NCBI GenBank assembly: GCA_963715595.1
Contig: OY970255.1
Location: 1,663,784 to 1,727,783, forward strand
Length of the DNA: 64,000 nt
From: an uncultured Actinomycetota bacterium
GTDB taxonomy: Bacteria; Actinomycetota; Actinomycetes; Actinomycetales; CAWJMD01
Direction of reading: 5' to 3'
Within the stretch, counting starts at the first letter, position 1; every line of letters starts with the position of its first letter. This document shows, one piece after another, positions 1-30,530 of this stretch. The translations under genes and the position numbers were made by a program. The notes below the pieces were generated by a model. That model saw only the letters and a program-made list of their open reading frames with translations. It did not search any database and was not told the DNA's origin.

Positions 1-62
1 GGGTCGGAGGTCGTTCAACGCGCGCGGACGGCAGGACGCATGCTGAGCCGGGCGCGCATGGG

Positions 63-1528
63 TCAGGTCGAACTGGTTGAGACCGCTGCTACGTACTGGG
101 CGTAGCCGGCTGCGGCGGTCCACGCGTGGCGTTCGATGGTGGCGGGGTGGTAGCCGAGAGCCTCGGCGATGACGGCGACCGGTGCGAGCTTGCTGAGCTC
201 CTCGAGGGTTCCGAGCCGGGCGGCGCGGGCGCCAAACACCTGCGTGAGCCGTGCGCGCAGGCTCATGGCGTGGATGTGACTGCCCGGGGACAGGCCGCGG
301 AACACCCAGTTGCTGGCGGGGTGGGCGGCGGTCTGGGTGTGCTCGGTGCTGGCCGCGAGTAGCCGCCAAGGCTCGTCGAGGGGCGCCGGGAGGGCGATGT
401 CGAGGCTGCCGAGTCGGACGGTGATCATGTCGTCGCTGACGGTGACGTCGTCCCAGGTGAGCCGGACGATCTTGTCGATCTGCTGGGCAAACACCAGCAC
501 CAGAAATCGCGGCGGCGCGGTCCCGTGGGGTCAGGTCGTCGGTGTGCACGACGCGCGCGATCGCGTGGTCCTGCTCGGTCGGGCTGAGCCGTCGGCTGGT
601 GCCGCGCCGGTGCTTGGGCACGGTGAGGTCGGCCGAGGCGAGGCAGCTCGTGATCGCCCAGCGCAGGAACCGGTCCGCGAGCAAGCGTGTGGACGGTCCG
701 GTCGCGATCCACCGGTCGAGGTGTGCCTGCCGCAGCTCGTCGAGCGTGATGCGTTCGGCCGTCAGCCAGTTCACCAGCTCGATCGCGACCGTGACGGTCT
801 GCTTGCTGGTCAGGAACATGCCCTGGGAGACGGCCTCGGAGTTGTGCATCCGGCGTAGGTGGTGCCAGCGGATGTACCGCTCGATGACCTCGCGCATCTG
901 CGGGTCGTCGACCCGGTCGACGGCCTGGGCGGCCCACTCCTGGTAGCGGATCATCGTCTCGTCCCGGCGGGGGAGGGCGCCGTGCTCGACCAGCAGCCCG
1001 CGGACGTAGTCGCGGGTGCGGCTGCGCGGCAGCCTGTCGAGCAGATCGTGCGTGATCATCGGGGCGAGCGCCAGGTCCTTCAGAAAGGCGCTGACGTGGG
1101 TCTGCCGGATCCAGGTCAGGCCGCTGTTGGCCCGCTTCATCGACTTCAACGCCGCGGCCATCGGCACCAGCTCGGGCGCCATCACGCCGGTGCGGGGATC
1201 AGTCAGGAGCTGGTCCACGACGACCGCGAGCTCGCACGGCCAGCACCGGCTGCCGCGGTAGAGCTCATCCTCCGCACCGCACTGCGAGCAGTCGAGGTTG
1301 AGCCGGACGCCGGAGCACCGGCGGCAGGCCGGTCGCTCGTCGATGCGGCCGGGTAGCACGCCGGTGTGTCCGCACGCGCAGGTGCCGCGGGTGCGCTTGG
1401 CCTGCTGGTAGCAGTAGCCGCAGACGCCGGCGTCGGGCCAGGTGGCGGCGATCGGGTAGTGCCCGCCGCAGCGCCCGCACGGTACCGGCCAGGCGTCGGG
1501 ATCGCTGGGCTTGCGCGGGTCTAGCCAT
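63..1528 (-). CDS. Tyrosine recombinase/integrase with a Cys-rich (multiple CxxC) N-terminal region. It has two apparent 1-nt frameshifts.
   Basis: My own translation of the minus strand gives PRKPSDPDAWPVPCGRCGG...CGYCYQQ...CACGH...CRRC...CSQCG...CWPCEL, followed by a core-binding-like region. The C-terminus is the ORF at 63-500 (..RLGTLEELSKLAPVAVIAEALGYHP..). The frame breaks at an extra t in a ttt run (plus-strand aaa at 505-507) and at the ccc run just after the ATG (plus-strand ggg at 1517-1519). The length of 1466 nt fits two extra bases. Confidence 0.7.
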
Positions 1529-1874
1529 CGGCGTCCGGCGGGATCAGCCGCACCCGGCGGGCGATCGGCTCGCCGGGCCTGACACCGAGGTCCTCCGGGC
1601 GACCTGGGGCGCTGGCGCTCTTCGCCGCGCGCAGCTCGACGAAGGGCTCGAACAGCTCATTCGGGGTGCAGTCGAGGATGTCGCACAGGGCGGCGAACGT
1701 GCGGGCCGGGATCCGCTCCGGTGTGCCTGTCACGAGTCGGTGGACCTGGGCGTTGGACAGGTTGATCCCGCGCGAGCGCAGCAGCGGGATCAGCTCGGTG
1801 GTCTTCCACAGGTTCCGCTGAGCCATCACCTGGCGCAGGTTCCACCGGTACCCGATCCGGCGCTGCTCGCTCAC
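1521..1874 (-). CDS. XRE-family helix-turn-helix transcriptional regulator
   Basis: The peptide VSEQRRIGYRWNLRQVMAQRNLWKTTELIPLLRSRGINLSNAQVHRLVTGTPERIPARTFAALCDILDCTPNELF is a typical HTH_XRE. Its GTG overlaps the upstream TGA (GTGA at 1871-1874). Its TAG overlaps the next ATG (ATGGCTAG at 1521-1528). Confidence 0.8.
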   Translation of the reverse strand: MSEQRRIGYRWNLRQVMAQRNLWKTTELIPLLRSRGINLSNAQVHRLVTGTPERIPARTFAALCDILDCTPNELFEPFVELRAAKSASAPGRPEDLGVRPGEPIARRVRLIPPDADG

Positions 1875-3130
1875 GTGGTGCTCCCGTCGGGCATCTCGCC
1901 GGTGCGGATGCGCCGGGCGATCATGCGCTGCACCGTTTTCTGCTTGAAGTCCGCCGACACCGACGTGTAGAGCGCGGTGGTGGAGGAGTACCCGTGGCCG
2001 ACCTGTTGCTGCACGAACAGCGGGTCGTAGCCGGCCTCGATCAGGTGCGTGACGTAGGAGTGCCTCAGCGCGTGCAACGTCAGCTCCTCGGGCAGCCCCG
2101 CTCGGCGGCGGATCCGCTGGAAGGCGCGATCGACGTTGCGCACCCCGGAGCCTTCGGCCCGTTCCGACGGCCACATCAGCGCAGACCGGTCGGCCGTGGG
2201 GAACCGTTCGCGTCCCTGCGGGGACAGCCAGAACGTCAGCAGGGGCACCACCTAGTCGAACTCGGGGACGGTCAGCACCGTCCGTCGTCGTGGGCCCGAG
2301 CCGCGGGTGCCCTTGGCCCACCTGACCTGGACCGCGCCGAACCGGTCGTAGGCCGGCACGTGCGGGTTCGGGCCGAAGTCGACGTGCTCGAGCATCGTCA
2401 CCTCGCGGCGCCGCAAGCCGTAGGCGTAGGCGACCTTGAAGGCGGTCGAGTCGCGCAGCGCCGGTAGCCACCGCTTGGAGCCCTTGGCGAACTCCTCGTC
2501 GACGACGTCGTCGGCCGCGTCGAAGAACGTCTGCAGCTCGATCTTGGTCAGGCTGCGCCTGGCCGGCGGCACCGCGTCGTCGGTGGTGTGCCGCGGAGCG
2601 TTCCAGTCGAACACCACCTGCGCGGGCAGCGCCCCGAACGTACGCTCGCAGAACGGGATCCAGCCGTACCGGGGTTCGGTCACGTAGGTGCAGAAGGCGC
2701 GGATCGCGCAGGCGTTGGCGCGCAGCGTGGACAGCGCGAGCTGCCGCTCGCCGCTGCGCCGGTCTGCCATGAACTCGTCGAAGTGGTGCGGCGACCACGT
2801 CCACGGGTATTCATTCGCGTGCTCCTGGAACCGGCTCACCAGCCGACCCGCGGCCAGGATGTGCGCCGTCGTCAGCCCCCGCGCCAGCTGCTGGGCACGC
2901 CAACCATCCAGCATCGCCTCGAACACCCGGTCCTCAGCCCGGAGCAGCCCGACGGCGTCGTCGACCAGGACCGCAGGGATCCGACCAGGCACCACCACGG
3001 GCAGGAACCTATGCGAGAAACTCTCATCTGATGAGAGCGACACGCGCTGACCTGCGACATCAGACTCCCGGCGCCGTCGACGGGTGCCACCTCGACCGAT
3101 AGGCCGTGAGCCGCTGACCTGCTGGGACAT
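1871..3130 (-). pseudogene. Tyrosine recombinase/integrase interrupted by an in-frame TAG
   Basis: The ORFs at 2252-3130 and 1871-2251 are in the same frame and are separated only by TAG (plus-strand cta at 2252-2254). The peptide reads ..TVLTVPEFD*VVPLLTFW.. . The catalytic motifs (HALRHSYVTHLIEAG, GHGYSSTTALYTSV) lie after the stop. Confidence 0.8.
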
Positions 3131-3328
3131 CGCGCGAGCATGCGGAGACGAGTTCTTGCATCTATCGCTACTCGTCCTAGTAGGCTACCGATAATGAGCA
3201 TTATGACAATCCAGGCGCACCGGAACCTGGGACGCCACGAACGGCACTCCCCTGTCGCAGGGTGCTGTCGGCGCACGGACGTGGTGGGGTGGTCCTCGGC
3301 GCCGCCCGCGCGCCGGTGAGGACACCAC

Positions 3329-4231
3329 GTGACCCAGGACCCTCGGCAGCGGCGCGAGCCCGCAACGCCGCCCGACCAGGCCGCCCACGCCGACGACCCG
3401 GCCGACGACCCGACCGACGATCCCTCCGGGCGGCGCGACGACGAGCGCACCACCGAGGAGAAGGACGACGCCCTCGACCGGGTCATCCTCGAGGGCCGTC
3501 CGCGCCTGCACCGCACGACGCCGGACCTGCTGGCGACCGGTGCGGTCGCGGGCATCGAGGTCGCGTTCGGCGTGCTCGCGCTCCTGCTGGTCGAGGAGGC
3601 GACGGGCAGCAGGCTGCTCGGCGCGCTCGCCTTCTCGATCGGCTTCGTCGCGCTGCGGCTCGGCCACAGCGAGCTGTTCACCGAGGGGTTCCACGTCCCG
3701 GTGATGGTCGTGCTCGCGCGAGAGGCCACGTGGGGTCAGCTGCTGCGGCTGTGGCTCGGCACGCTGGTGGGCAACCTCGTCGGCGGCTGGGCCGTGGCCT
3801 GGCTGATCGCAACCGCCCTGCCGAACCTGCACGCGGTCGCGGGTGAGAGCTCGCGGACGTTCACCGAGGCCCCTGCCGACCTGCGCACGGTTGCGCTGAC
3901 GGTGCTCGCGGGCGCCGCCATCACCCTGCTGACCCGGATGCAGAACGGCACCGAGGACGACGTCGCGAAGATCCTCGCCGCGGTGGGGATCGCGTTCGTC
4001 ATCGTCGGAGGCGGGCTGCTCCACTCGGTGCTCGACACCCTCATCATCTTCGTCGCGCTGCACGCCGGCGAGCCGGGTGCGACGTACGGCCAGTGGCTGC
4101 CGTTCTTCGCGATCGCGGTCGCCGGGAACCTCGTGGGTGGGCTCCTGCTCACGACGCTGCTGCGCGTCGTGCGCAGCCGCGAGCGGCTGATGCAGTGGCG
4201 CGCGACCGGCTCGCACGACGACGGGGCGTGA
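3329..4231 (+). CDS. Formate/nitrite transporter (FNT) family protein with an acidic disordered N-terminus
   Basis: Multi-TM protein with GHSELFTEGF and LLHSVLDT motifs typical of the FocA/NirC family. The start is uncertain. Confidence 0.8.
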   Translation: MTQDPRQRREPATPPDQAAHADDPADDPTDDPSGRRDDERTTEEKDDALDRVILEGRPRLHRTTPDLLATGAVAGIEVAFGVLALLLVEEATGSRLLGALAFSIGFVALRLGHSELFTEGFHVPVMVVLAREATWGQLLRLWLGTLVGNLVGGWAVAWLIATALPNLHAVAGESSRTFTEAPADLRTVALTVLAGAAITLLTRMQNGTEDDVAKILAAVGIAFVIVGGGLLHSVLDTLIIFVALHAGEPGATYGQWLPFFAIAVAGNLVGGLLLTTLLRVVRSRERLMQWRATGSHDDGA

Positions 4232-19184: not shown

Positions 19185-19666
19185 GGTCGAGGCCGGGCAG
19201 CCCGTCGATCGAGGTGGCGTTCTTCTCGGACAGGTAGCGCTCGTCGTAGGCGTCGTCGCGCCGCTCCTGGTGCCGGTCGGGCAGGTCGCGGTGGCCGACG
19301 AGGTCCATCAGCGGCACCGTGTACCCGCACGAGTCGGCGATGCGGTCGCACTCCACGACCACCACGGCCCGCTGGCCCCGCTCGCGCTCCTTGGGGAACA
19401 GCGCCCGGAGGTCGGCGAAGCCGGGGTCGCCGACCTGCACCACGCGTCCCGTTCCCTGCAGCCGCACGATGTTCGGCGCCCCGTGGAAGGCGTTGAACAT
19501 CAACGTGATCCGGCCGTTCTCGCGCACGTGCGCGATCGTCTCGACGCCGCTGCCGACGTAGTCGAGGTACGCCACGGTCGTCGGTCCGAGGACGGCGAAG
19601 GTGTCGGCCATGGTCGAGCAGCCAGGCCCGCAGCCTGTCGCCGATGGACTCGTGGACCGTTCCCAC
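19159..19666 (-). pseudogene. Pyridoxamine 5'-phosphate oxidase family protein with an apparent internal deletion near the 5' end
   Basis: The ORF at 19159-19611 starts at MADTFAVLGPTTVAYLD. A family-typical N-terminus (VGTVHESIGDRLRAWLLD) lies just upstream (to 19666) in another frame. About 20 expected residues between the two parts are missing. Confidence 0.5.
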
Positions 19667-19674
19667 GCCGGCCC

Positions 19675-22600
19675 TCAGCCCGCGCCGACGACGAGGACGA
19701 GGTCGCCGCCCTCGACCTGCTGCACGCTCGACAGCGCGAGCCGGGTGACGGTGCCCGCGACCGGCGTGGTGATGGCGGCCTCCATCTTCATCGCCTCGAT
19801 GGTCGCCACGGTCTGGCCCGCCTCGACGGCGTCGCCCTCGGCCACCTGGACCGACACGACGCCGGCGAACGGTGCCGCGACCTGGCCGGGTACGGAGGCG
19901 TCGGCCTTCTCGGCGGCCTTGACGTCGACCTGCACCGAGCGGTCGCGCACCTGCACCGGGCGCAGCTGGCCGTTGATGGTGCACAGCACCGAGCGCATGC
20001 CGCGCTCGTCGGCCTCGCCCACCGCCTCGACGCCGACGATGAGCTTGACGCCCTTGCCGAGGTCGACGACGTGCTCCTCGCCCTGCTGCAGCCCGTAGAG
20101 GTAGTCGCGGGTGTCGATGACCGAGACGTCGCCGTACTGCTCGCGCACCCGGTCGAGCTCGGCCGTGGGCCCGGGGAACAGCAGCCGGTTCAGGGCCGCG
20201 CGCCGCACCGGGCCGCTGTCGGCGAGCGCGCCGCGCTCCTCCTGCGGCACCTCCTCGACCCGCGGCTTGACCGTGCGGCCGGCGAGGGCCTTGGTGCGGA
20301 ACGGCTCCGGCCACCCGCCGGGCGGGTCGCCGAGCTCGCCGCCGAGGAAGCCGATGACCGAGTCGGGGATGTCGAAGTCCTTCGGGTTCTCCGCGAACTC
20401 CTCGGGGTCGGCCCCGGCCGCCACCAGGTGCAGGGCCAGGTCACCGACCACCTTGGACGACGGCGTCACCTTCACCAGCCGGCCGAGGAGCCGGTCGGCG
20501 GCGGCGTAGGTCGACTCGATCTGCTCGAACTTCTCCCCCAGCCCGAGGGCGATCGCCTGCTGGCGCAGGTTCGACAGCTGGCCGCCGGGGATCTCGTGGT
20601 CGTACACGCGTCCCGTCGGTGCCGTGAGACCGGACTCGAACGGCGCGTACGCGCGGCGGACGGCCTCCCAGTAGGGCTCCAGGTCCATCACGGCCCGCAG
20701 CGACAGGCCGGTGTCGCGCTCGGTGTGCGCCAGAGCGGCGACCAGCGCCGAGGCGGGCGGCTGCGAGGTGGTGCCGGCCATCGAGGCGCTGGCGACGTCG
20801 ACGGCGTCGACGCCCGCGTCGACCGCCGCGAGCAGCGTCGCGAGCTGGCCACCCGCGGTGTCGTGGGTGTGCAGGTGCACCGGGAGGTCGAACCGCTCGC
20901 GCAGGGCCGTGACCAGGGTGCGCGCCGCCTGGGGCCGCAGCAGCCCGGCCATGTCCTTGATGGCGAGCACGTGCGCGCCGGTGCCGACGATCTGATCGGC
21001 GAGGCGCAGGTAGTAGTCGAGGGTGTAGAGGTCCTCGGCGGGGTCGGCCAGGTTGCCGGTGTAGCAGAGGGCGACCTCGGCGACCGTCGTCCCGGTTTCG
21101 AGCACCGCCTCGACGGCCGGGCGCATCTGCTCGACGTCGTTCAGGGCGTCGAAGATGCGGAACACGTCGATGCCGGTGGCGGCCGCCTCGGCGACGAACG
21201 CCTGCGTCACCTCGGTGGGGTACGGCGTGTAGCCCACCGTGTTGCGGCCTCGCAGCAGCATCTGCAGGGCCAGGTTCGGCATCGCCTCGCGCAGCCGCGC
21301 GAGCCGGTCCCACGGGTCCTCGCCGAGGAAGCGCAACGTGACGTCGTAGGTGGCGCCGCCCCAGCACTCCACGCTCCACAGCTCGGGTGTCAGGCGCGCC
21401 ACGGTCGGGCCCGCGGCCAGCAGGTCGCGGGTGCGCACCCGGGTGGCGAGCAGCGACTGGTGCGCGTCGCGGAACGTGGTGTCGGTGACCGCGACCGCGG
21501 TCTGCTCGCGCAGCGCCCGGGCGAAGCCCTCCGGCCCGAGAGCGACCAGCTGCTGCCGGGTGCCGTCGGGGGCCGGCGCCGACAGGTCGGTGGCCGGCAG
21601 CTTGTCGGCCGGGTCGACGTGCACGGTCAGCTCGCCGTGCGGCTTGTTCACCGTGACGTCGGCGAGCCAGCGCAGGATCTTCGTCCCGCGGTCGGCACCG
21701 ACGCGCGCCGCGAGCAGGTGCGGACGCTCGTCGATGAACGACGTGGCGAGATCGCCTGCGGCGAAGGCGTCCTCGGCCAGCACGGCCTGCAGGAAGGGGA
21801 TGTTGGTGTGGACCCCGCGGATGCGGAACTCGGCCAGGGCGCGCGAGGCCCGTCGCACCGCCATCGGGAAGTCGCGCCCGCGGCAGGTGAGCTTGACCAG
21901 CATCGAGTCGAAGTGGGCGCTGATCTCGGCGCCGGTGGCGGCGGTGCCGCCGTCGAGCCGCACGCCGGCGCCGCCGGCCGAGCGGTACGCCGTGATCTGC
22001 CCCGTGTCGGGACGGAAGCCGTTCGAGGGGTCCTCGGTGGTGATGCGGCACTGCAGCGCTGCGCCGTTGACGCGGATGACGTCCTGCGACAGGCCGAGGT
22101 CGGCGAGGGTGGCGCCCGAGGCGATCCGCAGCTGCGAGGCGACCAGGTCGACGTCGGTGACCTCCTCGGTGACCGTGTGCTCCACCTGGATGCGGGGGTT
22201 CATCTCGATGAACACGTGCTGGCCGGCCCGCTCGCCCTCGGTCTCGACCAGGAACTCGACGGTGCCGGCGTTGACGTAGCCCAGGGCCCGGGCGAACGCC
22301 ACGGCGTCGCGGCACAGCGCGTCGCGCAGCGCGGGGTCGAGGTTGGGCGCCGGGGCGATCTCGACGACCTTCTGGTGCCGTCGCTGCACCGAGCAGTCGC
22401 GCTCGTACAGGTGCACGACCTCGCCGCTCGCGTCGGCCAGCACCTGCACCTCGATGTGGCGCGGACGCGCCACGGCCTGCTCGATGAACACGGTCGGGTC
22501 GCCGAACGCGCTGTCGGCCTCGCGCATGGCGGTCTCGAGCGCCTCGCGCAGCGCCTCGGGACGCTCGACGCGGCGCATGCCGCGCCCGCCGCCGCCGGCC

Positions 22601-23079
22601 ACGGCCTTGACGAACACCGGGAACCCGACCTCGTCGGCCGCCGCCACGAGCTCGTCGAGGTCGGACGACGGTGCGGACGAGCGCAGCACGGGGATGCCGG
22701 CCTCGCGCGCCGCCGCCAGCGCCCTGACCTTGTGGCCGGCGAGGCTGAGCACCTGCGGCGGGGGCCCGACGAACGCGATGCCCGCCGCCTCGCACGCCTC
22801 GGCGAGCAGCGGGTTCTCGGACAGGAAGCCGTAGCCGGGGTACACGGCGTCGGCGCCGCACTCCAGCGCGACCCGCACGATCTCGTCGACGTCGAGGTAG
22901 GCGCGCACCGGGTGCCCGCGCTCGCCGATCAGGTACGACTCGTCGGCCTTGATGCGGTGCACCGCGTTGCGGTCCTCGTACGGGAACACCGCGACCGTGC
23001 GCGCCCCGAGCTCGACGGCCGCGCGGAAGGCGCGGACGGCGATCTCGCCGCGGTTGGCGACCAGCACCTTGGAGAACAT
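19675..23079 (-). CDS. pyc: Pyruvate carboxylase
   Basis: 1134 aa. It has a biotin carboxylase N-terminus (MFSKVLVANRGEIAVRAFRA), a carboxyltransferase domain, and a C-terminal biotinyl motif EAMKME. Confidence 0.95.
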   Translation of the reverse strand: MFSKVLVANRGEIAVRAFRAAVELGARTVAVFPYEDRNAVHRIKADESYLIGERGHPVRAYLDVDEIVRVALECGADAVYPGYGFLSENPLLAEACEAAGIAFVGPPPQVLSLAGHKVRALAAAREAGIPVLRSSAPSSDLDELVAAADEVGFPVFVKAVAGGGGRGMRRVERPEALREALETAMREADSAFGDPTVFIEQAVARPRHIEVQVLADASGEVVHLYERDCSVQRRHQKVVEIAPAPNLDPALRDALCRDAVAFARALGYVNAGTVEFLVETEGERAGQHVFIEMNPRIQVEHTVTEEVTDVDLVASQLRIASGATLADLGLSQDVIRVNGAALQCRITTEDPSNGFRPDTGQITAYRSAGGAGVRLDGGTAATGAEISAHFDSMLVKLTCRGRDFPMAVRRASRALAEFRIRGVHTNIPFLQAVLAEDAFAAGDLATSFIDERPHLLAARVGADRGTKILRWLADVTVNKPHGELTVHVDPADKLPATDLSAPAPDGTRQQLVALGPEGFARALREQTAVAVTDTTFRDAHQSLLATRVRTRDLLAAGPTVARLTPELWSVECWGGATYDVTLRFLGEDPWDRLARLREAMPNLALQMLLRGRNTVGYTPYPTEVTQAFVAEAAATGIDVFRIFDALNDVEQMRPAVEAVLETGTTVAEVALCYTGNLADPAEDLYTLDYYLRLADQIVGTGAHVLAIKDMAGLLRPQAARTLVTALRERFDLPVHLHTHDTAGGQLATLLAAVDAGVDAVDVASASMAGTTSQPPASALVAALAHTERDTGLSLRAVMDLEPYWEAVRRAYAPFESGLTAPTGRVYDHEIPGGQLSNLRQQAIALGLGEKFEQIESTYAAADRLLGRLVKVTPSSKVVGDLALHLVAAGADPEEFAENPKDFDIPDSVIGFLGGELGDPPGGWPEPFRTKALAGRTVKPRVEEVPQEERGALADSGPVRRAALNRLLFPGPTAELDRVREQYGDVSVIDTRDYLYGLQQGEEHVVDLGKGVKLIVGVEAVGEADERGMRSVLCTINGQLRPVQVRDRSVQVDVKAAEKADASVPGQVAAPFAGVVSVQVAEGDAVEAGQTVATIEAMKMEAAITTPVAGTVTRLALSSVQQVEGGDLVLVVGAG

Positions 23080-23173
23080 GGCCCGAGCCTACCGAGCCGT
23101 CCGGCAGGTGGGACGCGCGTCCCGGCAGGTGAGCCGGACGTTCTCGTCCGGGTACCGGGCTACGGTGGACGGC

Positions 23174-23641
23174 ATGCCCAGGAGCATCGCCACCACCACG
23201 TCCGTCGACCGCGACGAGCTGCTCGACTTCGTCCGGCCCCGCCACCACTTCGTGCTCGTCACCACCCGCCGCGACGGCACGGCCCAGGCCTCACCGGTCA
23301 CCGGCGGCGTCGACGACCAGGGCCGGCTCGTGGTGTCGACCTACCCCGACCGCGCCAAGGCGGCCAACGTCCGGCGCACGGGTACGGCGTCGGTGCTGGT
23401 GCTCTCGGACGACTTCGGCGACGCGTGGGTGCAGGTCGACGGCGACGCCGAGGTGCTCGACCTGCCCGAGGCCGAGGACGCCCTGGTCGACTACTTCCGC
23501 TGCATCAGCGGCGAGCACCCCGACTGGGACGAGTACCGGCAGGCGATGCGCGAGCAGGGCAAGAGCCTGATCCGGGTCACCCCCACCCGGTGGGGCCCGG
23601 TCGCCACCGGCGGGTTCCCCGCCCGGCTCGCGGACGCCTGA
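23174..23641 (+). CDS. PPOX-class (probably F420-dependent) oxidoreductase
   Basis: FVLVTTRRDGTAQASPV and VLSDDFGDAWVQVDG are typical of the actinobacterial PPOX/F420H2-dependent family. Confidence 0.75.
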   Translation: MPRSIATTTSVDRDELLDFVRPRHHFVLVTTRRDGTAQASPVTGGVDDQGRLVVSTYPDRAKAANVRRTGTASVLVLSDDFGDAWVQVDGDAEVLDLPEAEDALVDYFRCISGEHPDWDEYRQAMREQGKSLIRVTPTRWGPVATGGFPARLADA

Positions 23642-23667
23642 CCCGACCGGCAGCGACCCGGCGCCGG

Positions 23668-23934
23668 TCAGCGCTGGGGGTGGTCCGGGGTCGCCGGGTC
23701 GCCGGGGCGCCGCGCGGTGCGGCGGTGCTGCTCGGCGAGCTTGTCGGTGGCGCCCTTGGCGGCCGTCTGCGCCTTGTCGACCTGCGACGCGTACCTGCCC
23801 TTGGTCCTGCGGTCGAGCGCGTCACCGGCCTTGTCGACCACGCCGTCGACCTTGTGGCCGTGCTGGGCGGCCAGCTTGCCCGCCTGCCCCTTCGCGTCCT
23901 CGAGCGCCTTCTTGGCCTTGTCGGCGAAACCCAT
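23668..23934 (-). CDS. MT0933-like small protein (annotated as an antitoxin family, function unproven)
   Basis: MGFADKAKKALEDAKGQAGKLAAQHGHKVDGVVDKAGDALDRRTKGRYASQVDKAQ repeat-like sequence. Confidence 0.7.
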   Translation of the reverse strand: MGFADKAKKALEDAKGQAGKLAAQHGHKVDGVVDKAGDALDRRTKGRYASQVDKAQTAAKGATDKLAEQHRRTARRPGDPATPDHPQR

Positions 23935-24035
23935 GGGCGTCCTCCCGGTCGGTCGTGTCGTGCGCGGACCCCCTCACCGTGCCACCACCGCGCTCGCGCG
24001 GCCAGCGAGCGGCACGCCCAGGGCAGCCGGCACGC

Positions 24036-25532
24036 TCAGGGCAGCTCCCAGGTGTGCACCGGCTCGTTCGAGTGCATGCCGTCGACGTAGATCTCGAGCA
24101 TCTTGGCCAGCGCCGTCGGCCGGTCCATGCCCTTGTCCTGCAGCCGCTGCACGGCGTTCGTCTGCCACCAGGCGCCGTTGCGGCCGGTCTTGGCGCGGCC
24201 CTCGATGACGCCCAGGTAGCGCTCGCGCACCGGGGCGGCCACGCCCCAGGCCTCGAGCCCCTCGTGCGCGACGCGCAGCAGCCGGCGCAGCACGAGCTCG
24301 TCGGCGGTCACCTCCCCCAGGCTCGGCCAGTAGACCGTGGCGTCGAGGCCGTTCTTGGCGCAGCTGATGAAGTTCTGCTCGGCGGTCGAGAAGCCGAGCT
24401 TGCTCCAGACCGGGCGCTCCATCTCGGCCAGCACCTTGACGCAGCCGTAGTAGAAGGCGGCGTTGGCCATGATGTCGACGACGGTGGGGCCGGCCGGCAG
24501 CACGCGGTTCTCGACCCGCAGGTGGGCCCGTCCGTCGACCACGTCGTAGATCGGGCGGTTCCACCGGTAGACCGTGCCGTTGTGCAGGCGCAGCTCCTGC
24601 AGCCGCGGGGCCCTGCCCTGCTCGAGCACCGCGACCGGGTCCTCGTCGGTGAGCTCGGGCAGCAGCGACGGGAAGTAGCGGACGTTCTCCTCGAACAGGT
24701 CGAAGATCGAGGTGATCCAGCGCTCGCCGAAGAACACGCGGGGCCGCACGCCCTGGTTCTTCAGCTCCTTCGGCCGGGTGTCGGTGGCCTGCTTGAACAG
24801 CTCGATCCGGGTCTCGTCCCACAGCCGGCGGCCGAAGAAGAACGGCGAGTTGGCGGCCAGGGCCACCTGCGGGGCCACGAGCACCTGCGCCGCGTTCCAG
24901 TGCGCCGCGAACGCCTGCGGCGCGACCTGCAGGTGCAGCTGCACCGACGTGCAGGCCGACTCGGGGGCGATCGTGTCGGAGTACACCGCCAGCCGCTCCG
25001 GGCTCGGTCCCGACCCGAGGATGTCGATGAACAGGTCCTCGCCGCGGCTGGTGAAGATCTGCTCGTTCAGGGCCGAGTAGCGCGCCGACGGGCTCATCCA
25101 CGCGCCCGTGAAGTGCTCGGGCATCACCGTGGGCAGGATGCCGACCATGACGATCTGGGCGCCCACGTCGCCGGCCTTGCCCGCCGCCGCGTTCAGGGTC
25201 TGGCGCAGGATCTGCTCCAGCTCGAGCGCGGACGAGCCGGGCAGCGGCCGCGGCGCCACGTTCAGCTCGATGTTGTAGGCGCCGATCTCGGTCTGGTAGC
25301 TCGCGTCGGCGATGTGGTCGAGCACCTGGGCGTTCTTCATCGTCGGACGGAAGTCGTCGCCGACCAGGTTGAGCTCGACCTCGAGCCCCGTGAGCGCCCG
25401 CCCGGACTCGAACGCGCTGGTCGACAGCATCCGCTCGAACACGTCGAGGCACAGCTGCACCTTCTCGCGGTACCGCTGGCGGTGCTCGCGCGTGTAGGCC
25501 GTGCCGCTGACCTCGTCTCCCACGCCCGTCAC
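24036..25532 (-). CDS. Glutamate-cysteine ligase family 2 (carboxylate-amine ligase) protein
   Basis: GLEVELNLV, YNIELNV and TSVQLHLQV motifs. Only the C-terminal ~499 aa of the 995-aa ORF look coding. Start at GTG 25532 or 25523. Confidence 0.85.
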   Translation of the reverse strand: MTGVGDEVSGTAYTREHRQRYREKVQLCLDVFERMLSTSAFESGRALTGLEVELNLVGDDFRPTMKNAQVLDHIADASYQTEIGAYNIELNVAPRPLPGSSALELEQILRQTLNAAAGKAGDVGAQIVMVGILPTVMPEHFTGAWMSPSARYSALNEQIFTSRGEDLFIDILGSGPSPERLAVYSDTIAPESACTSVQLHLQVAPQAFAAHWNAAQVLVAPQVALAANSPFFFGRRLWDETRIELFKQATDTRPKELKNQGVRPRVFFGERWITSIFDLFEENVRYFPSLLPELTDEDPVAVLEQGRAPRLQELRLHNGTVYRWNRPIYDVVDGRAHLRVENRVLPAGPTVVDIMANAAFYYGCVKVLAEMERPVWSKLGFSTAEQNFISCAKNGLDATVYWPSLGEVTADELVLRRLLRVAHEGLEAWGVAAPVRERYLGVIEGRAKTGRNGAWWQTNAVQRLQDKGMDRPTALAKMLEIYVDGMHSNEPVHTWELP

Positions 25533-25649
25533 GTCCCCTCGGGTCGGGGGCTCCACGGACCCGTCCGCGGCACCCGGCGTGAGCCAACCACACTCCGCCA
25601 CGCCGCACACGTCCCGCCGGATGTCGGACTCAGTTCCTACCGTGTGTCC

Positions 25650-26792
25650 ATGCGCCTGCTGCACACCTCCGACTGGCACCTGGGCCGGTCGTTCCACGGT
25701 GTCGACATGCTGGGTGCCCAGGCCGGGTTCCTCGACCACCTGGTCGAGGTGGTGCGGTCCGAGGGGGTCGACCTCGTCGTCGTGGCCGGCGACGTCCACG
25801 ACCGCGCGCTGCCCCCGGTCGACGCCGTGCGCCTGCTCGACGACGCCCTCGACCGGCTGCTGGCGGCCGGGGCGCGGGTCGTGGTCGCGAGCGGCAACCA
25901 CGACTCCCCGCAGCGACTGGGGTTCGGCGCCCGGCGCGCCGAGGCGTCCGGGCTGCACCTGCGCACCGACCCCGCCGACCTGCACCGCCCGGTGCTGCTC
26001 GACGACGCGCACGGCGAGGTGGCGGTGTACGCCCTGCCCTACCTCGAGCCGGCGATGGTCGCCCAGTCCCTCGGCACCCGGCCCACCCACCCGCAGGTGG
26101 TGGGGGCGGCGCTGGCGCGCGTGCGCGCCGACCTCGCCCGCCGGCCCGGCGCCCGCAGCGTGGTCGCCGCGCACGCGTTCGTGTCCGGCGCCGCGCCGAG
26201 CGACAGCGAGCGCGACATCCGCGTCGGCGGTGTCGGCGTCGTCTCCCGCACCCTCTTCGACGGGTTCGGCTACGCCGCCCTGGGGCACCTGCACGGGCCG
26301 CAGCGGCTCGCCGAGCACGTCCGCTACAGCGGCTCTCCCCTGCCCTACTCCTTCTCCGAGGCCGGCCAGCGCAAGGGCTCGTGGCTGGTGCACCTGGGCG
26401 CCGACGGGGTCGAGCAGGTCGAGCAGGTACCCGCCCCGGTGCACCGTCCGCTCGTGGTGCTGCGGGGCGACCTCGCCGACCTGCTGGCCGACCCCGCGCA
26501 CGCCGCGGCCGAGCACGCCTTCTGCCAGGTCGTCCTCACCGACCCCCAGCGTCCGGCGGCGCCGATGGAGCGGCTGCGCACCCGCTTCCCCCACACCGTG
26601 CACCTCGGCTTCGAGCCCCGGGGCGCCGTGCGCGACCAGCGGTCCTACACCGAGCGCGTGCAGGGCCTCGACGACGAGGAGGTCTGCTGCGCGTTCCTCA
26701 CCGACGTGCGCGGGCGCGACGCCGACCCGGCCGAGCGCGCGCTGCTGCGCCGTGCGCTCGAGCAGGTGCGGCGCGACGAGGTGGTGGCGTGA
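25650..26792 (+). CDS. sbcD: Exonuclease SbcCD, nuclease subunit D
   Basis: MRLLHTSDWHLGR, VVVAGDVHD and SGNHDS are Mre11-type phosphoesterase motifs. Confidence 0.9.
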   Translation: MRLLHTSDWHLGRSFHGVDMLGAQAGFLDHLVEVVRSEGVDLVVVAGDVHDRALPPVDAVRLLDDALDRLLAAGARVVVASGNHDSPQRLGFGARRAEASGLHLRTDPADLHRPVLLDDAHGEVAVYALPYLEPAMVAQSLGTRPTHPQVVGAALARVRADLARRPGARSVVAAHAFVSGAAPSDSERDIRVGGVGVVSRTLFDGFGYAALGHLHGPQRLAEHVRYSGSPLPYSFSEAGQRKGSWLVHLGADGVEQVEQVPAPVHRPLVVLRGDLADLLADPAHAAAEHAFCQVVLTDPQRPAAPMERLRTRFPHTVHLGFEPRGAVRDQRSYTERVQGLDDEEVCCAFLTDVRGRDADPAERALLRRALEQVRRDEVVA

Positions 26793-29700
26793 GGCTGCAC
26801 CGGGTGCGCGTCCAGGCCTTCGGCCCGTTCGCCGAGGCGGTCGAGGTCGACCTCGACGCGCTCGCCGAGCACGGGCTGTTCCTGCTGCACGGGCCCACCG
26901 GCGCCGGCAAGACCAGCCTGCTCGACGCCGTCTGCTTCGCCCTCTACGGCGTCGTGCCGGGCGCCCGGGCCGCGCTGCGCGGCACCGCGCTGCGCAGCGA
27001 CCACGCCGCCACGGGCGTCGCACCGGTCGTCGAGGTCGAGCTGACGGTGCGCGGGCGCCGCCTCGAGGTGGTGCGCTCCCCCGCGTGGGAGCGCCCCAAG
27101 GCCCGCGGCACCGGCACCACGACCGAGCAGGCGTCGGTGCGGGTGCGCGAGCAGGTGGGCACCGGGTGGGTGCCTCTCGCCGCCCGGCTCGACGAGGCGG
27201 GCCACCTGCTGTCGGGCCTGCTCGGCATGGACGTGCGGCAGTTCACCAGCGTCGTGCTGCTGCCCCAGGGCGACTTCGCGACGTTCCTGCGCGCCGGTCC
27301 CGACGAGCGCCGCACCGTGCTGGAGCGGCTGTTCGGCACCGACCGGTTCGCCGCCGTCGAGCAGTGGCTCGCCGAGCAGCGCACGCTGACCGGTCGGGCG
27401 GTGCGCACGGCGACCGCCCAGCACGCGACGCTGCTGGCTCGCGCCGACGAGCGGGTGTCGGCCGTGCGCGAGGCCTGCCCGGGCGTCGGCGCCACCGGTG
27501 GCGACGACGCCGCCAGCGTGCGCGCGCGTCACGACCTGCTCGCCGACGCGCTCGGCGCCGCCCGCACGCTCCTCGACCAGCAGCACGACGCGCTGCGCGT
27601 GGCGCGCGACGACGTCGAGACCGCCACCGAGACCGCCCGCCGCGACGGCGAGCTGCTCGCGACGCTGCGCCACCGTCGCCGCCTGCAGGCGGCGACGGCC
27701 GAGGTCGACGCGCTGCGCTCGGCCCTCGAGGCCGATGCCCGAGCCGGCGCGCTCGTCCCCCACCGCGACCGGCTCGCTCGCGCCGACGACGAGCTGGCCC
27801 GGGCGCAGGCCGACCTGCGCCTCGCGCTCGCCGCGCTCCCGGCGTCCCTCGACCTCGGCGAGCGGCCCGACCCCGACGCGCTGGCGACGCTGCTCGACGG
27901 CACCCGCGCCGAGCTGGCACGGCTCGGGCCGCTGGTCGAGCGCGAGCGGGCCGCCGCAGCGCTCGAGGCCGACGCCGATGCGCACCGCGACCTGCTCGCG
28001 GCGACCGAGGCCTCGCTGCGGGCCGGTGCGAGCGAGCGCGCCGCCCTCGAGCACGACCGCGACGCGCTGCGGGCGCGGCGCGAGCCGCTCGCGCTCGCCG
28101 CCGCGGGCCTGGGTGCGGCTCGCGAGGCGGTCGTGCGCGCCCACGACGTCGCGACCGCCGCCGCCGCGGCCGGCCGCCTGGCCCCGCGGCTGCGTGCGGC
28201 CGACGACGACGTCCGCGCGGCCGACGACGCGGCGGCGCGCGCCCGCGCCGACCACCTCGACCTCCTCGAGCGGCGCCTGGCCGGCATGGCCGGCGAGCTC
28301 GCGTCGGGTCTGCACGACGGTTCGCCGTGCCCCGTGTGCGGCGCCGACGAGCACCCGTCGCCCGCCACCGGCGCCGACCTGGTCGACGCCGCGGTCGTGC
28401 AGCAGGCCCTGGAGTCCTCGCAGGCGCTCACCGCCGCCGCCGGCACGGCCCGCGAGGACCGCGACCGGCTGCTGCAGCAGGTGCGCGAGGCCGAGCAGGC
28501 AGCCGGCGGGCGCAGCGTGCGGGCGGGCGCCGCCGACGTCGAGGCGGCCACCGCCGACCTGATCCGGCGGCAGCGGGCGCGCGGCACGCTCGAGCAGGTC
28601 GACGCCGCCCTCGCCGCGCACGACCAGCGGGTGGCCGAGCTGGCCCTCGAGGTCGAGGCGGTCACCGCCCGGGCCTCGTCCCTGCGCGAGCAGCTCGCCC
28701 GGCTCGGCACCCGGCGCGACGACCTCGGCGCCGAGCTGGTCGCCGCCCGGGGCGACGACACCACGGTCGCCGCGCGCGCGCAGCGACTGACCGCGCTCGT
28801 CGTCCCGCTGTCCCGTGCCCTGGCGCTGGCCCGCGAGCTGCCCGCGGCCCGGCGCGCCGTGCAGCAGGCCGGCGCCGACGCCGTCACCGCTTGCGCCGCA
28901 GCGGGTTTCGACGACCTCGCCGCGGCGGCTACCGCCGTCCTCGACCCGCGCGCACGCGACGACGCGCAGGCCCGGGTGGCGCGGCACGAGCGCGAGTCCG
29001 CCGGGGTCGAGCACCGCCTCGCGCAGGACGACCTCGCGCAGGCGGCCGCCGGCGCAGAGCCGGCCGAGCTCGAGCGCTCGCTCGCCGACCGGGCCGCCGT
29101 CCACGCCGCCACCCGCCAGCGCGCCGTCGACGCCGAGGCCGCGGTGCGGGCCACCACCGCCCGGCTCACCCTGCTCGAGGGTGCCGTGGTCGCCCTGCAC
29201 GCCCTGGCCGACGAGGTGGCCGCGCAGGAGCGCACGCTGCAGCGCCTGACCGCCGAGGCGCAGGTCGTCGAGGAGCTCGCCGGCTGCGCCCTCGGCACCT
29301 CGGCCGGCAACGCGCTGCGCATGCGGCTGTCGGCGTACGTGCTGGCCGCCCGGCTCGAGCAGGTCGCGGCCGCGGCCTCGGTGCGGCTGCAGGCCACCAC
29401 CGCCGGGCGCTACGAGCTGCGGCACTGCGACGCCCGCGGGCGCGGCGGCGGCCGCTCCGGACTCGGTCTGCTCGTCGTCGACCACTGGACCGGCCAGGAG
29501 CGCGAGACCGCGAGCCTGTCCGGCGGGGAGTCGTTCCTGGCGTCCCTCGCGCTCGCGCTCGGCCTCGCCGACGTCGTCCAGGCCGAGTCCGGCGGTCTCG
29601 GCATCGAGACCCTGTTCGTCGACGAGGGCTTCGGCACGCTCGACGACGACACGCTGGAGCTCGTCGTCGCCTCGCTCGACGAGCTGCGCGCGGGCGGGCG

Positions 29701-29815
29701 GGCCGTCGGCGTGGTCTCGCACCTGCCCGAGCTGCGCACCCGGATCCCCTCCCAGCTGCAGGTCCTGCGCGGCGAGCGCGGGTCGACGGTGCGCCCGGTC
29801 CACCGCGCCGGCTGA
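26789..29815 (+). CDS. sbcC: Exonuclease SbcCD, ATPase subunit C
   Basis: Walker A GPTGAGKTSLLDA, a long Ala/Arg/Leu-rich coiled coil, the zinc hook CPVCG, a signature LSGGESF and Walker B LFVDEGFGTLD. GTG overlaps the sbcD stop. Confidence 0.9.
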   Translation: MRLHRVRVQAFGPFAEAVEVDLDALAEHGLFLLHGPTGAGKTSLLDAVCFALYGVVPGARAALRGTALRSDHAATGVAPVVEVELTVRGRRLEVVRSPAWERPKARGTGTTTEQASVRVREQVGTGWVPLAARLDEAGHLLSGLLGMDVRQFTSVVLLPQGDFATFLRAGPDERRTVLERLFGTDRFAAVEQWLAEQRTLTGRAVRTATAQHATLLARADERVSAVREACPGVGATGGDDAASVRARHDLLADALGAARTLLDQQHDALRVARDDVETATETARRDGELLATLRHRRRLQAATAEVDALRSALEADARAGALVPHRDRLARADDELARAQADLRLALAALPASLDLGERPDPDALATLLDGTRAELARLGPLVERERAAAALEADADAHRDLLAATEASLRAGASERAALEHDRDALRARREPLALAAAGLGAAREAVVRAHDVATAAAAAGRLAPRLRAADDDVRAADDAAARARADHLDLLERRLAGMAGELASGLHDGSPCPVCGADEHPSPATGADLVDAAVVQQALESSQALTAAAGTAREDRDRLLQQVREAEQAAGGRSVRAGAADVEAATADLIRRQRARGTLEQVDAALAAHDQRVAELALEVEAVTARASSLREQLARLGTRRDDLGAELVAARGDDTTVAARAQRLTALVVPLSRALALARELPAARRAVQQAGADAVTACAAAGFDDLAAAATAVLDPRARDDAQARVARHERESAGVEHRLAQDDLAQAAAGAEPAELERSLADRAAVHAATRQRAVDAEAAVRATTARLTLLEGAVVALHALADEVAAQERTLQRLTAEAQVVEELAGCALGTSAGNALRMRLSAYVLAARLEQVAAAASVRLQATTAGRYELRHCDARGRGGGRSGLGLLVVDHWTGQERETASLSGGESFLASLALALGLADVVQAESGGLGIETLFVDEGFGTLDDDTLELVVASLDELRAGGRAVGVVSHLPELRTRIPSQLQVLRGERGSTVRPVHRAG

Positions 29816-29906
29816 CCAATCCGCAGCGCCCCGCGTCCCGAAGACCCACCGAGCGCGGCGCCAGGCCACGCGGACGTGCGGACGCAGGCAGGAGGGACGT
29901 GGGACA

Positions 29907-30530
29907 GTGGCCGACGTGCTCCCCTTCTCTCGGAACCGTGCCGCCGCGCACGTCGGCGACGGCGCACCCGCGCAGGCCTCGCCGGACGCCGCTCTCGCCG
30001 ATCTCATGCGCCTGGTGGCGCAGGGCGACGAGCAGGCGTTCGCGCAGGTGTACGACGCGCTGTCGCCGTCGGTCTACGGGCTCGTGCTGAGGGTCCTGCG
30101 CGACCCCGCGCAGTCGCAGGAGGTCGCCCAGGAGGTCATGGTCGACCTCTGGCGCCAGGCCACCCGGTTCGACCCCGACAAGGGCAGCGTCAAGGGCTAC
30201 GTGCTCACGATGGCCCACCGTCGTGCGGTCGACCGCGTCCGCTCCGCCCAGGCGTCCACCGACCGCGAGCTGCGGGTCGGCCAGGCCAGTCAGGAGCGCG
30301 AGTTCGACGAGGTCGCCGAGGCCGTGGAGAACAGGCTCGAGGTGCAGCAGGTGCGCCGAGCGTTGCGGGTGCTCACCGAGCTGCAGCGCGAGGCCGTGCA
30401 GCTCGCGTACTACGGCGGCTACACCCACCGGGAGGTGTCCGAGCTGCTCGACGTGCCGCTCGGCACGGTGAAGACCAGGTTGCGTGACGGACTGATCAGA
30501 CTCAGGGACGAGATGGGGGTGACGGCATGA
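29907..30530 (+). CDS. sigK: ECF RNA polymerase sigma factor (SigK-like)
   Basis: Sigma-70 region 2 (QEVMVDLWR) and region 4 (AYYGGYTHREVSELLDVPLGTVKTRL). It is followed by an RskA-type anti-sigma gene with an ATGA overlap. Confidence 0.8.
   Translation: MADVLPFSRNRAAAHVGDGAPAQASPDAALADLMRLVAQGDEQAFAQVYDALSPSVYGLVLRVLRDPAQSQEVAQEVMVDLWRQATRFDPDKGSVKGYVLTMAHRRAVDRVRSAQASTDRELRVGQASQEREFDEVAEAVENRLEVQQVRRALRVLTELQREAVQLAYYGGYTHREVSELLDVPLGTVKTRLRDGLIRLRDEMGVTA

Follow-up and report, generated by a model that had tools for sequence, protein, structure and literature searches.

Integrative mobile elements that exploit Xer (IMEXs), such as CTXphi, VGJphi, TLCphi and the gonococcal genetic island, settle at the chromosome dimer resolution site dif, can form arrays there and leave a functional dif behind. 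They encode no recombinase and use XerCD within the central region of dif. In Actinomycetota, Van Houdt et al. (2012) described 'Tn554-related' elements with 'abnormally long TBSSRs (611-828 aa)', that is, tyrosine-based site-specific recombinases, which occur in multiple copies on plasmids and chromosomes (PMC3414803). Romaniuk et al. (2018) recognized 'XER modules' on the plasmids pA2H2, pA8H1 and pA40H2 of Antarctic Arthrobacter, consisting of a recombinase, an XRE regulator, a second recombinase and passenger genes; these were proposed as a novel integrative element, with no ends, attachment sites or mechanism described (PMC6305408). Here we analyse a stretch of 64,000 nucleotides from an uncultured Actinomycetota bacterium (contig OY970255.1 of assembly GCA_963715595.1, positions 1,663,784 to 1,727,783; hereafter, the window). 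At its left end it carries a trio of genes for an Xer-like tyrosine recombinase (called RecA here), an XRE-family helix-turn-helix (HTH) regulator and a third, recombinase-like protein (RecB). We estimate a probability of about 0.8 that window positions 1-3183 are the larger part of an integrative element of ~4.7 kb, which docks at the edge of dif, is widespread in Actinomycetota and is dead in this copy.

The trio shows the core order of the XER modules, and its cargo is deduced from a close relative (L086) and from a contig of the Logan assemblies. However, the third protein of pA8H1 has 828 aa compared with 488 aa here, and it is its C-terminal ~440 aa that are 26% identical to RecB (96% of RecB, E=3e-30). 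In addition, the XER module of pA8H1 lies between umuD and a umuC fragment, an insertion that the window trio does not share, and no dif-like site is found nearby. As far as these alignments tell, XER modules are distant relatives with another target and not the same element. A preliminary description of this DNA, made from the sequence alone, had named a match to a family already described as something that would refute its reading; a related module is indeed in the literature, with the same core order, and it is not the same element. We also observed that the pA8H1 module (L092, NZ_MH067977.1, 1954-18238) is bounded on its far side by a second, inverted HTH and recombinase pair beside the umuC fragment, and that a long palindrome (CTCCCGTCTAATGCA..TGCATTAGACGGGAG), and no dif, is found at its left end.

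The 'Tn554-related' elements share with the trio a recombinase of typical size and a long recombinase-like protein with an uncharacterised N-terminal extension. Long RecB variants of 770-830 aa probably correspond to the 'abnormally long TBSSRs' of PMC3414803, compared by description. Tn554 has the order tnpA-tnpB-tnpC, while the trio has an HTH gene in between, an inverted repeat at one end and a dif arm edge as target, so gene order and site set them apart. Recombinase in trio (RIT) elements are also operons of three genes with short overlaps that include tyrosine recombinases. Nevertheless, all three RIT genes code for recombinases (RitA/B/C), whereas the middle gene of the trio is of the HTH_26 family and its third protein lacks a canonical active site according to a manual alignment. 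An RIT element was ruled out, since the middle gene is not a recombinase. The gene order thus bears out the earlier remark that the layout is neither that of RIT nor that of Tn554.

The identity of the target was obtained from the sequences flanking the trios. In the loci that we collected, the RecA-side end is flanked directly outside by the motif TTGACATAA-N6-TTATCGGCG, whose reverse complement matches the predicted Frankia alni dif CACGCCGATAATGCACATTATGTCAAGT (Kono et al. 2011). This reverse complement matches as well the chromosomal dif predicted for Arthrobacter, Rhodococcus, Nocardioides and Mycobacterium (Kono et al. 2011). This dif was found 184-206 nt upstream of RecA codon 47 in 53 of the 60 loci with enough flank, with consensus AACGCCGATAATCTACATTATGTCAAGT; the other seven are either disrupted, or the second element of a tandem, or copies that have the site at a different distance. 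In L021, L032, L043, L045 and L058, from Arthrobacter and Paenarthrobacter, all 28 positions agree with the predicted A. chlorophenolicus A6 dif (28/28), from which L028 and L031 are one base off, and Nocardioides loci match the JS614 dif at 27/28 positions, central region included. In the window, the core CCGATAA-N6-TTATGACAA departs from the pattern at one position and is its sole match in 64 kb, where shuffled sequences led us to expect 0; window positions 3184-3211 are therefore read as very probably the chromosomal dif. Two elements 99.9% identical over 5.9 kb (L027 and L028) have five differences within the dif stretch, and two others that are 98% identical (L017 and L085) have different dif central regions. 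Since dif follows the host taxon and differs between near-identical elements, it is derived from the target and not borne by the element. No tRNA target was found within 12 kb, and an Rfam scan returned a single sub-threshold chance match.

Further information about the insertion point was obtained by comparing empty and occupied sites. Arthrobacter sp. FB24 plasmid 2 has an empty site (..TTGACATAATCTCCATTATCGGCGTTC|CGAAAGCAATG..), joined directly to a flank with a major facilitator superfamily (MFS) transporter gene that is 97.6% identical to the flank after the element in pASPHE302. The latter plasmid shows the occupied site, with attL ..TTATCGGCGTTC|AAAGTACGGGAG.. and attR ..GCATGCCAGTTC|GAAAGCAATG... 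Its 3.6-kb element is inserted right after the 11-nt XerC arm, with only ~GTTC shared and no evident duplication. Judged from these junctions, insertion takes place exactly at the outer edge of a pre-existing XerC arm and dif is left undisrupted. An empty-site search closer to the window genome gave FNT homologues (L093 and L094; 82-84% identity) that share ~100 nt upstream, have no dif and are uninformative. The literature that we searched on actinobacterial dif-associated elements, with few subscription journals covered, gave no description of integration at the edge of dif.

A second type of trio is arranged as a mirror image of the first. FB24 plasmid 2 (L088, NC_008538.1, 425-4002) has a divergent trio across that dif, turned so that the RecA end faces the XerD arm. 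This trio encodes an integrase (368 aa), an HTH protein (111 aa) and a third protein (505 aa), at 30-49% identity to the first type. The backbone is uninterrupted in pASPHE302 and pJ349-116 (..AGCAACTTTAG|TTGACATAAT) and occupied in FB24 plasmid 2 (..AGCAACTTTAG|TGGCATCCC..(3.58 kb)..GCACTAG|TTGACATAAT), from which we read that this second subfamily inserts at the edge of the XerD arm. Moreover, both types stand head to head around one dif in six genome loci (L032, L034, L036, L041, L058 and L066, at ~100-3300), indicating that one dif can be flanked by elements on both sides. A copy on a Rhodococcus pyridinivorans plasmid likewise adjoins the XerD arm, and a Prescottella equi copy with 40% RecB identity adjoins the XerC arm. 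In pJ349-116 (L089, NC_019339.1, 5650-9700), we observed the same backbone and dif with a remnant junction (..CGGCTGCCAGTTCCGCGGGAGTAGAAGTGGCTACG..), followed by a Tn7-like TnsA/TnsB/TniB element; this arrangement makes the edge of dif look like a hotspot at which different kinds of mobile elements insert. At 0.8-1.9 kb past the right end, L034 (7340-7400) and L051 (8660-8720) show a second, weaker dif-like site (TTGACGAAAT..TTATCGGCTCTT), which is directly oriented and seems to be unoccupied.

Trios of this kind recur in different genomic contexts. More than 422 homologues share 60-73% identity with RecB; they all come from Actinomycetota and are annotated variously as 'Fis family transcriptional regulator', 'integrase' or hypothetical protein. 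A scan of species-representative genomes gave 80 loci, in which the order RecA-HTH-RecB is kept wherever the sequence suffices and the XRE gene is conserved at the same position in essentially all cases, and tblastn found the RecB family on 250 plasmids. The trio occurs in unrelated neighbourhoods of Rhodococcus and Pimelobacter genomes, and elements that are 98-99.9% identical were found in different flanks. The survey of homologue neighbourhoods that the preliminary description had called for speaks for a mobile unit and not for a fixed orthologous locus. The elements measure 3.2-7.6 kb; their ends are conserved and their cargo varies. Many short-read contigs, 3.0-7.6 kb long, have their start ~195 nt upstream of RecA codon 47 and stop at a conserved motif, and repeat contigs of relatives open 4-8 nt before the repeat arm and close at ..CCAGT plus 1-2 nt. 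Contigs of these sizes with fixed ends are the signature of a multi-copy element.

Both ends could be defined in the family. The RecA-side end has an inverted repeat of 8-9-mers placed 16 nt apart, GGGACGAGT..ACTCGTCCC in one subgroup and ACGGGAGT..ACTCCCGT in the other, and the sequence of the repeat arm co-varies by subgroup (ACGGGAGT/ACTCCCGT vs GGACGAGT/ACTCGTCC). The far end, 0.1-4 kb past the RecB stop, is a conserved 33-mer ending in ..GCCAGT; one of the subgroups has it as ACTCGTCCC-N8-ACGTCCCGCTGCCAGT, the second as ACTCCCGTCCCATGAATACCCGTGCATGCCAGT. Left-repeat and right-end types change together, as read by eye from the table of loci with no scripted tally, the exceptions being L008 and L032. 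Such covariation is expected if a single element-encoded protein binds all these repeats. Just upstream of recA, all loci inspected have in the same place a palindrome (CTCTCATTAGATGAGAG or CTGCATCTAATGCAG) equivalent to that at window positions 3021-3037; these 17 bp are a candidate operator of the XRE regulator.

In L016, L021, L033, L036, L039, L046, L047, L050 and L055, the right end is followed by a spacer and another left repeat. These are tandem elements or their remnants, and their junction ..GCCAGT-TAAAGT-ACGGGAGT.. resembles the attP predicted on a circle. In single copies, the right flank is frequently similar to a weak left repeat (xCGGGGGAG), which is what a B' half-site would look like. 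We also observed units of a right end plus a left inverted repeat ~140 bp apart in L036 (7440-7700), L016 (7030-7160) and L021 (~7177), which look like miniature or deleted derivatives stacked in arrays beside full elements. Positions 1-78 of the deposited public contig L047 are a poly-C run followed by an untrimmed Nextera adapter (GTCTCGTGGGCTCGGAGATGTGTATAAGAGACAG).

The right-end motif was searched for within the window and is not present. The window aligns at 89.9% nucleotide identity, down to window position 13, to L086/L087, which is the closest relative that we read and was assembled from two runs of a different project. The right-end motif of L086, ACTCGTCCCGGCAATACACGTCGCGCTGCCAGT, ends at position 3489, 1.48 kb beyond the point that matches window position 13. 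Taking L086 as a proxy, the left end of the element would lie further left, outside the window, in agreement with the preliminary description. The cargo of L086/L087 (2092-3304) comprises a gene for a lipoprotein-like protein of 210 aa and another for a HExxH metallopeptidase of 188 aa with weak M10/M12 Pfam matches. The same 210-aa and 188-aa genes are listed past the RecB stop in a 4853-bp Logan contig with the window's own proteins. We infer from these data that the window element measures ~4.7 kb and that its far end lies ~1.5 kb off the window, past two cargo genes. A PemK toxin-antitoxin pair was observed just outside the right end of L086/L087 (3562-4115).

Window positions 63-3211 hold three overlapping minus-strand genes and a flank with the terminal repeat and dif (Table 1). 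The preliminary description had chained these genes by overlaps of start and stop codons, GTGA at 1871-1874 and ATGGCTAG at 1521-1528; both are present, and its proposal of a partial integrative module, with recombinase, XRE regulator and recombinase-like protein in one operon, is upheld. Its low-GC right flank was confirmed too: 3081-3260 is the least GC-rich part of the window (57-58% vs 74.8% overall) and contains palindromes. What it had overlooked is their nature. The AT-rich palindromes that it placed at 3131-3260 resolve into the candidate operator, the terminal inverted repeat and the dif site, and the search of the flanks for repeats that it recommended yielded the inverted repeat with the host dif adjacent. 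Elsewhere in the window (26000-30000 and 19270-30090), a stretch of 79% GC with very long plus-strand open reading frames (ORFs; 1606 aa and 1529 aa) differs from the 74.8% average.

Table 1. Features of the element and of its target in the window
Feature	Position	Strand	Remark
Start of the spacer/cargo side of the element	1..62	-	Element runs on past window position 1
RecB pseudogene, ~488 aa once repaired	63..1528	-	Broken by two +1 insertions
XRE-family regulator, 117 aa, HTH_26, intact	1521..1874	-	Pfam PF13443, E=1.6e-15
RecA, Xer-like tyrosine recombinase, ~375 aa	1871..2998	-	Pfam PF00589, E=8e-16
TAG nonsense codon in place of conserved Trp (TGG)	2252..2254	-	Splits the catalytic domain
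Perfect 17-bp palindrome CTCTCATCWGATGAGAG	3021..3037	.	Just upstream of the RecA start
Terminal inverted repeat, RecA side, AGACGAGT-N16-ACTCGTCC	3146..3177	.	Candidate recombinase-binding sites
Spacer between inverted repeat and dif	3178..3183	.	Putative crossover region and element boundary
Host dif (very probable), 28 bp, GCTACCGATAA-TGAGCA-TTATGACAATC	3184..3211	+	Outside the mobile unit
Parts of dif	XerC arm 3184-3194, central region 3195-3200, XerD arm 3201-3211	+	

RecA has the R-K-H-R-H/W-Y set and the Phage_integrase domain of tyrosine recombinases, this domain being split by the TAG codon in the window copy. R195, K228, H308, R311, H334 and Y343 are invariant among 18 members of the RecA family. 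The best match among PDB sequences is E. coli XerD (E ~1e-11, with an intact RecA homologue as query), and the NCBIfam XerC/XerD matches are all below cut-off. Homology begins at residue 46-47 of the long ORF that opens at ATG 3130, and a separate gene call starts at 2998, yielding an N-terminal fragment of 248 aa; therefore the start of RecA is probably GTG 2998 and not ATG 3130. Pfam places the catalytic domain at residues 224-392, with the stop at residue 293. The in-frame TAG in the context ..PEFD*VVPLL.., from which inactivation of the upstream recombinase had been proposed, was verified. Trp occupies this position in 83/86 homologue alignments, so a transition from TGG to TAG is the likely origin of the stop and the proposal stands. 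It had also been stated that all catalytic motifs lie past the TAG codon, which is true for HxxR, His and Tyr; Arg-I (YGLRRRE) and the beta-hairpin Lys (WAKG) lie upstream.

RecB is organized as a zinc-ribbon-like domain with six Cys pairs, a core-binding domain of tyrosine-recombinase fold and an apparently degenerate catalytic domain. The N-terminus rich in CxxC pairs, pointed out before, is indeed remarkable in the family: 12 Cys in six CxxC/CxC pairs within the first 100 residues, all family-invariant. The Pfam PF00589 match of RecB is weak (E=0.006), although many homologues carry a precomputed PF00589, and PDB sequences searched with a RecB profile gave no match. An AlphaFold2 (AF2) model was built from 54 sequences (mean pLDDT 74, <50 for residues 434-479), for which Foldseek found tyrosine recombinases only, over 260-330 columns (XerH 5jk0 with E=1.6e-4, then Cre, lambda Int and XerA). 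According to this model, RecB has a tyrosine-recombinase fold with core-binding and catalytic domains. When the RDRAAAILVLVFGQQIE segment of the RecB family is manually aligned to XerD box I, a nearly invariant Gln is found at Arg-I. Where HxxR, LGH and the nucleophile Tyr are expected, the manual alignment gives 'RAARLG', 'LGY' and 'ERHA', in a part of the model with pLDDT <50. It shows no Tyr at the canonical spacing; Y475 and Y478, further on, are invariant. RecB may thus be a DNA-binding partner of recombinase fold rather than a catalytic recombinase. To speak of two tyrosine recombinases, as the preliminary description did, is right for the fold and overstated for the active site, which by the manual alignment has Gln at Arg-I and no canonical arrangement of HxxR, His and Tyr. 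The elements called SE reportedly have the core genes intA, tfp, intB and srap, with two tyrosine recombinases plus a 'tyrosine recombinase fold protein'. They would be a precedent for a non-canonical recombinase-fold partner, in another phylum and with another gene set. SE are not known to target dif.

The window copy is, as its reading frames stand, a recently inactivated fossil, dead by a Trp-to-stop change in the RecA catalytic domain and two RecB frameshifts. Compared with the family and with the 90%-identical copy, RecB has 1-nt insertions in a C run near 1517-1520 and in a T run near 506-515, and it is readable only with one base removed at each place. Both frameshifts are single-base gains in short homopolymer runs and overall dN/dS is low, as it would be if the three lesions were sequencing or assembly errors and the element were intact and active. 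However, identical fragment ORFs are found in the assembly that Logan made of ERR12037361, a run that is possibly the read set behind the genome itself: RecA pieces of 248 and 126 aa, the HTH protein, no N-terminal RecB ORF and then 145 aa. The exact 117-aa HTH, 126-aa RecA and 145-aa RecB C-terminal pieces are on record in the NCBI contig (3,796,593 bp), in ENA and in Logan. As the same broken ORFs occur in an independent assembly, the lesions are probably real rather than sequencing errors. In addition, the nonsense change is a substitution, and the L086 copy, with the RecB N-terminus and the second frameshift site intact, bears its own -1 frameshift near codon 236, present in both runs. We consider errors very unlikely as the source of the lesions. 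Consequently, of the earlier claim on RecB, the two homopolymer insertions are there, and the suggestion that the gene may really be intact has become unlikely. Between the window and L086, dN/dS is 0.17 for the HTH gene, 0.27 for RecB and 0.21 for the RecA C-terminus. These low values suggest that most of the divergence took place under selection and that the inactivations of the two copies were recent and independent.

We hypothesize that an intact element excises as a circle, in which the right end (..GCCAGT), a ~6-nt spacer and the left repeat arm would be joined into attP; the predicted circle junction is GCATGCCAGT-TCAAAGT-ACGGGAGT. RecA, the sole protein with the full R-K-H-R-H-Y set, would bind the repeated 8-9-mers, cleave and exchange strands in the ~6-nt spacer. 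It would recombine attP with an attB in which a dif arm and a short spacer are joined to a half-site that weakly resembles the repeat. The half-sites that are not repeats, namely the right end in attP and the dif arm in attB, could be occupied by RecB or by host XerC/XerD. The XRE protein would repress the operon at the palindrome before recA, in an autoregulatory way. If RecB is inactive, perhaps only one strand pair is exchanged and the junction would be resolved by replication or host factors, as happens in CTX integration.

A position next to dif and tandem arrays at this site, as in CTX-type elements, would also be expected if the trio were the passenger of a classical IMEX, with host XerC/XerD recombining a dif-like attP of the element with dif and the element recombinases being irrelevant. 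The last ~9 nt of the right end are weakly XerC-arm-like (ATGCCAGTT vs ATCGGCGTT, by eye). Nevertheless, the junction coincides with the outer edge of an arm, XerC or XerD, and does not fall in the central region, dif stays intact with no hybrid dif formed, and the right end is conserved with the element instead of being swapped with a host arm. Moreover, unlike IMEXs, the trio family brings its own Xer-like recombinase, which is always carried in a catalytically complete form, is under purifying selection and inserts outside the arms. With an own recombinase, a crossover outside the dif centre and a right end that is not a dif, we rejected a classical IMEX as highly improbable. A right end consisting of a degenerate dif was discarded as well (only ~8/26 position-wise identity, by eye). 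The similarity of RecA to XerD/XerC above all other proteins and the good quality of the adjacent dif would fit as well a self-contained, immobile Xer-type dimer-resolution module. Plasmid resolvase genes commonly adjoin their own site. This proposal is extremely improbable when confronted with the empty dif that has the same right flank and no trio, the sharp junctions where the trio is present, and a dif sequence that tracks the host taxon and differs between 99.9%-identical elements. Conserved right ends, variable cargo, tandem arrays, multi-copy repeat contigs and a distant subfamily (pA8H1) with no dif nearby argue against it too.

The trio could also be a Tn554-type transposon in a rearranged gene order, with two tyrosine recombinases plus a small third protein. 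Actinobacterial 'Tn554-related' elements pair a ~350-aa recombinase with an abnormally long one of 611-828 aa (PMC3414803), the 828-aa protein of pA8H1 is the distant RecB homologue mentioned above, and the long variants are found on 224 plasmids. As in Tn554, no target duplication is evident. However, the small HTH gene stands in the middle, with no TnpC-like gene or third small conserved gene downstream, the element has a terminal inverted repeat and targets a dif arm instead of att554, and NCBIfam gave only sub-threshold matches of Xer/integron type. We regard a Tn554-type origin of the trio as unlikely.

An element that integrates at the edge of dif by means of its own recombinase is the explanation that we favour, and several observations weigh against it. 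Neither a circular form nor an excision product was seen, and tandem arrays could account for every attP-like junction. What RecA, RecB, the XRE protein and host XerC/XerD do is inferred, and the right end of the window copy comes from L086/L087 and the gene list of the Logan contig only. The loss of catalytic residues in RecB was read from a manual alignment to XerD motifs, exactly where the pLDDT of the AF2 model falls below 50, and the profile comparison of RecA with RecB was not significant (hhalign probability 0.4%, hmmsearch alignments spurious). The site adjacent to L001 matches dif poorly, at 20/28 positions, and one of its mismatches falls in the conserved TTATG. The window dif may be the functional terminus dif; the GC skew of the 64 kb is dominated by local effects, and several loci sit 3-35% along large contigs, near the terminus or not.

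In summary, the trios belong to a large and barely described family, in which docking at the edge of a dif arm is the aspect of interest and the window copy itself is ordinary. It is tempting to propose, at slightly less than even odds, that they are a distinct class of actinobacterial integrative elements, with an attB taken from the outer edge of one dif arm (XerC or XerD), insertion beside dif as a safe landing pad and an asymmetric core site served by an element recombinase, paired with a catalytically degenerate RecB or with the host Xer protein that already occupies dif. Nearly all circular bacterial replicons have to retain dif, a short sequence, and its known exploiters, the IMEXs, borrow XerCD. 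Docking of an element at the edge of a dif arm by its own recombinase would be a second, mechanistically different use of dif as a landing site. For annotation, the three 'genes' of the window are to be taken as pseudogene fragments of one dead element. If the proposal is true, these elements would have a safe landing pad on every circular replicon. This would explain why many plasmids and chromosomes in Arthrobacter, Rhodococcus, Nocardioides, mycobacteria and their relatives have the same cargo-carrying modules of 3-8 kb, and high-GC Gram-positive bacteria would gain a natural tool for integration targeted to dif.

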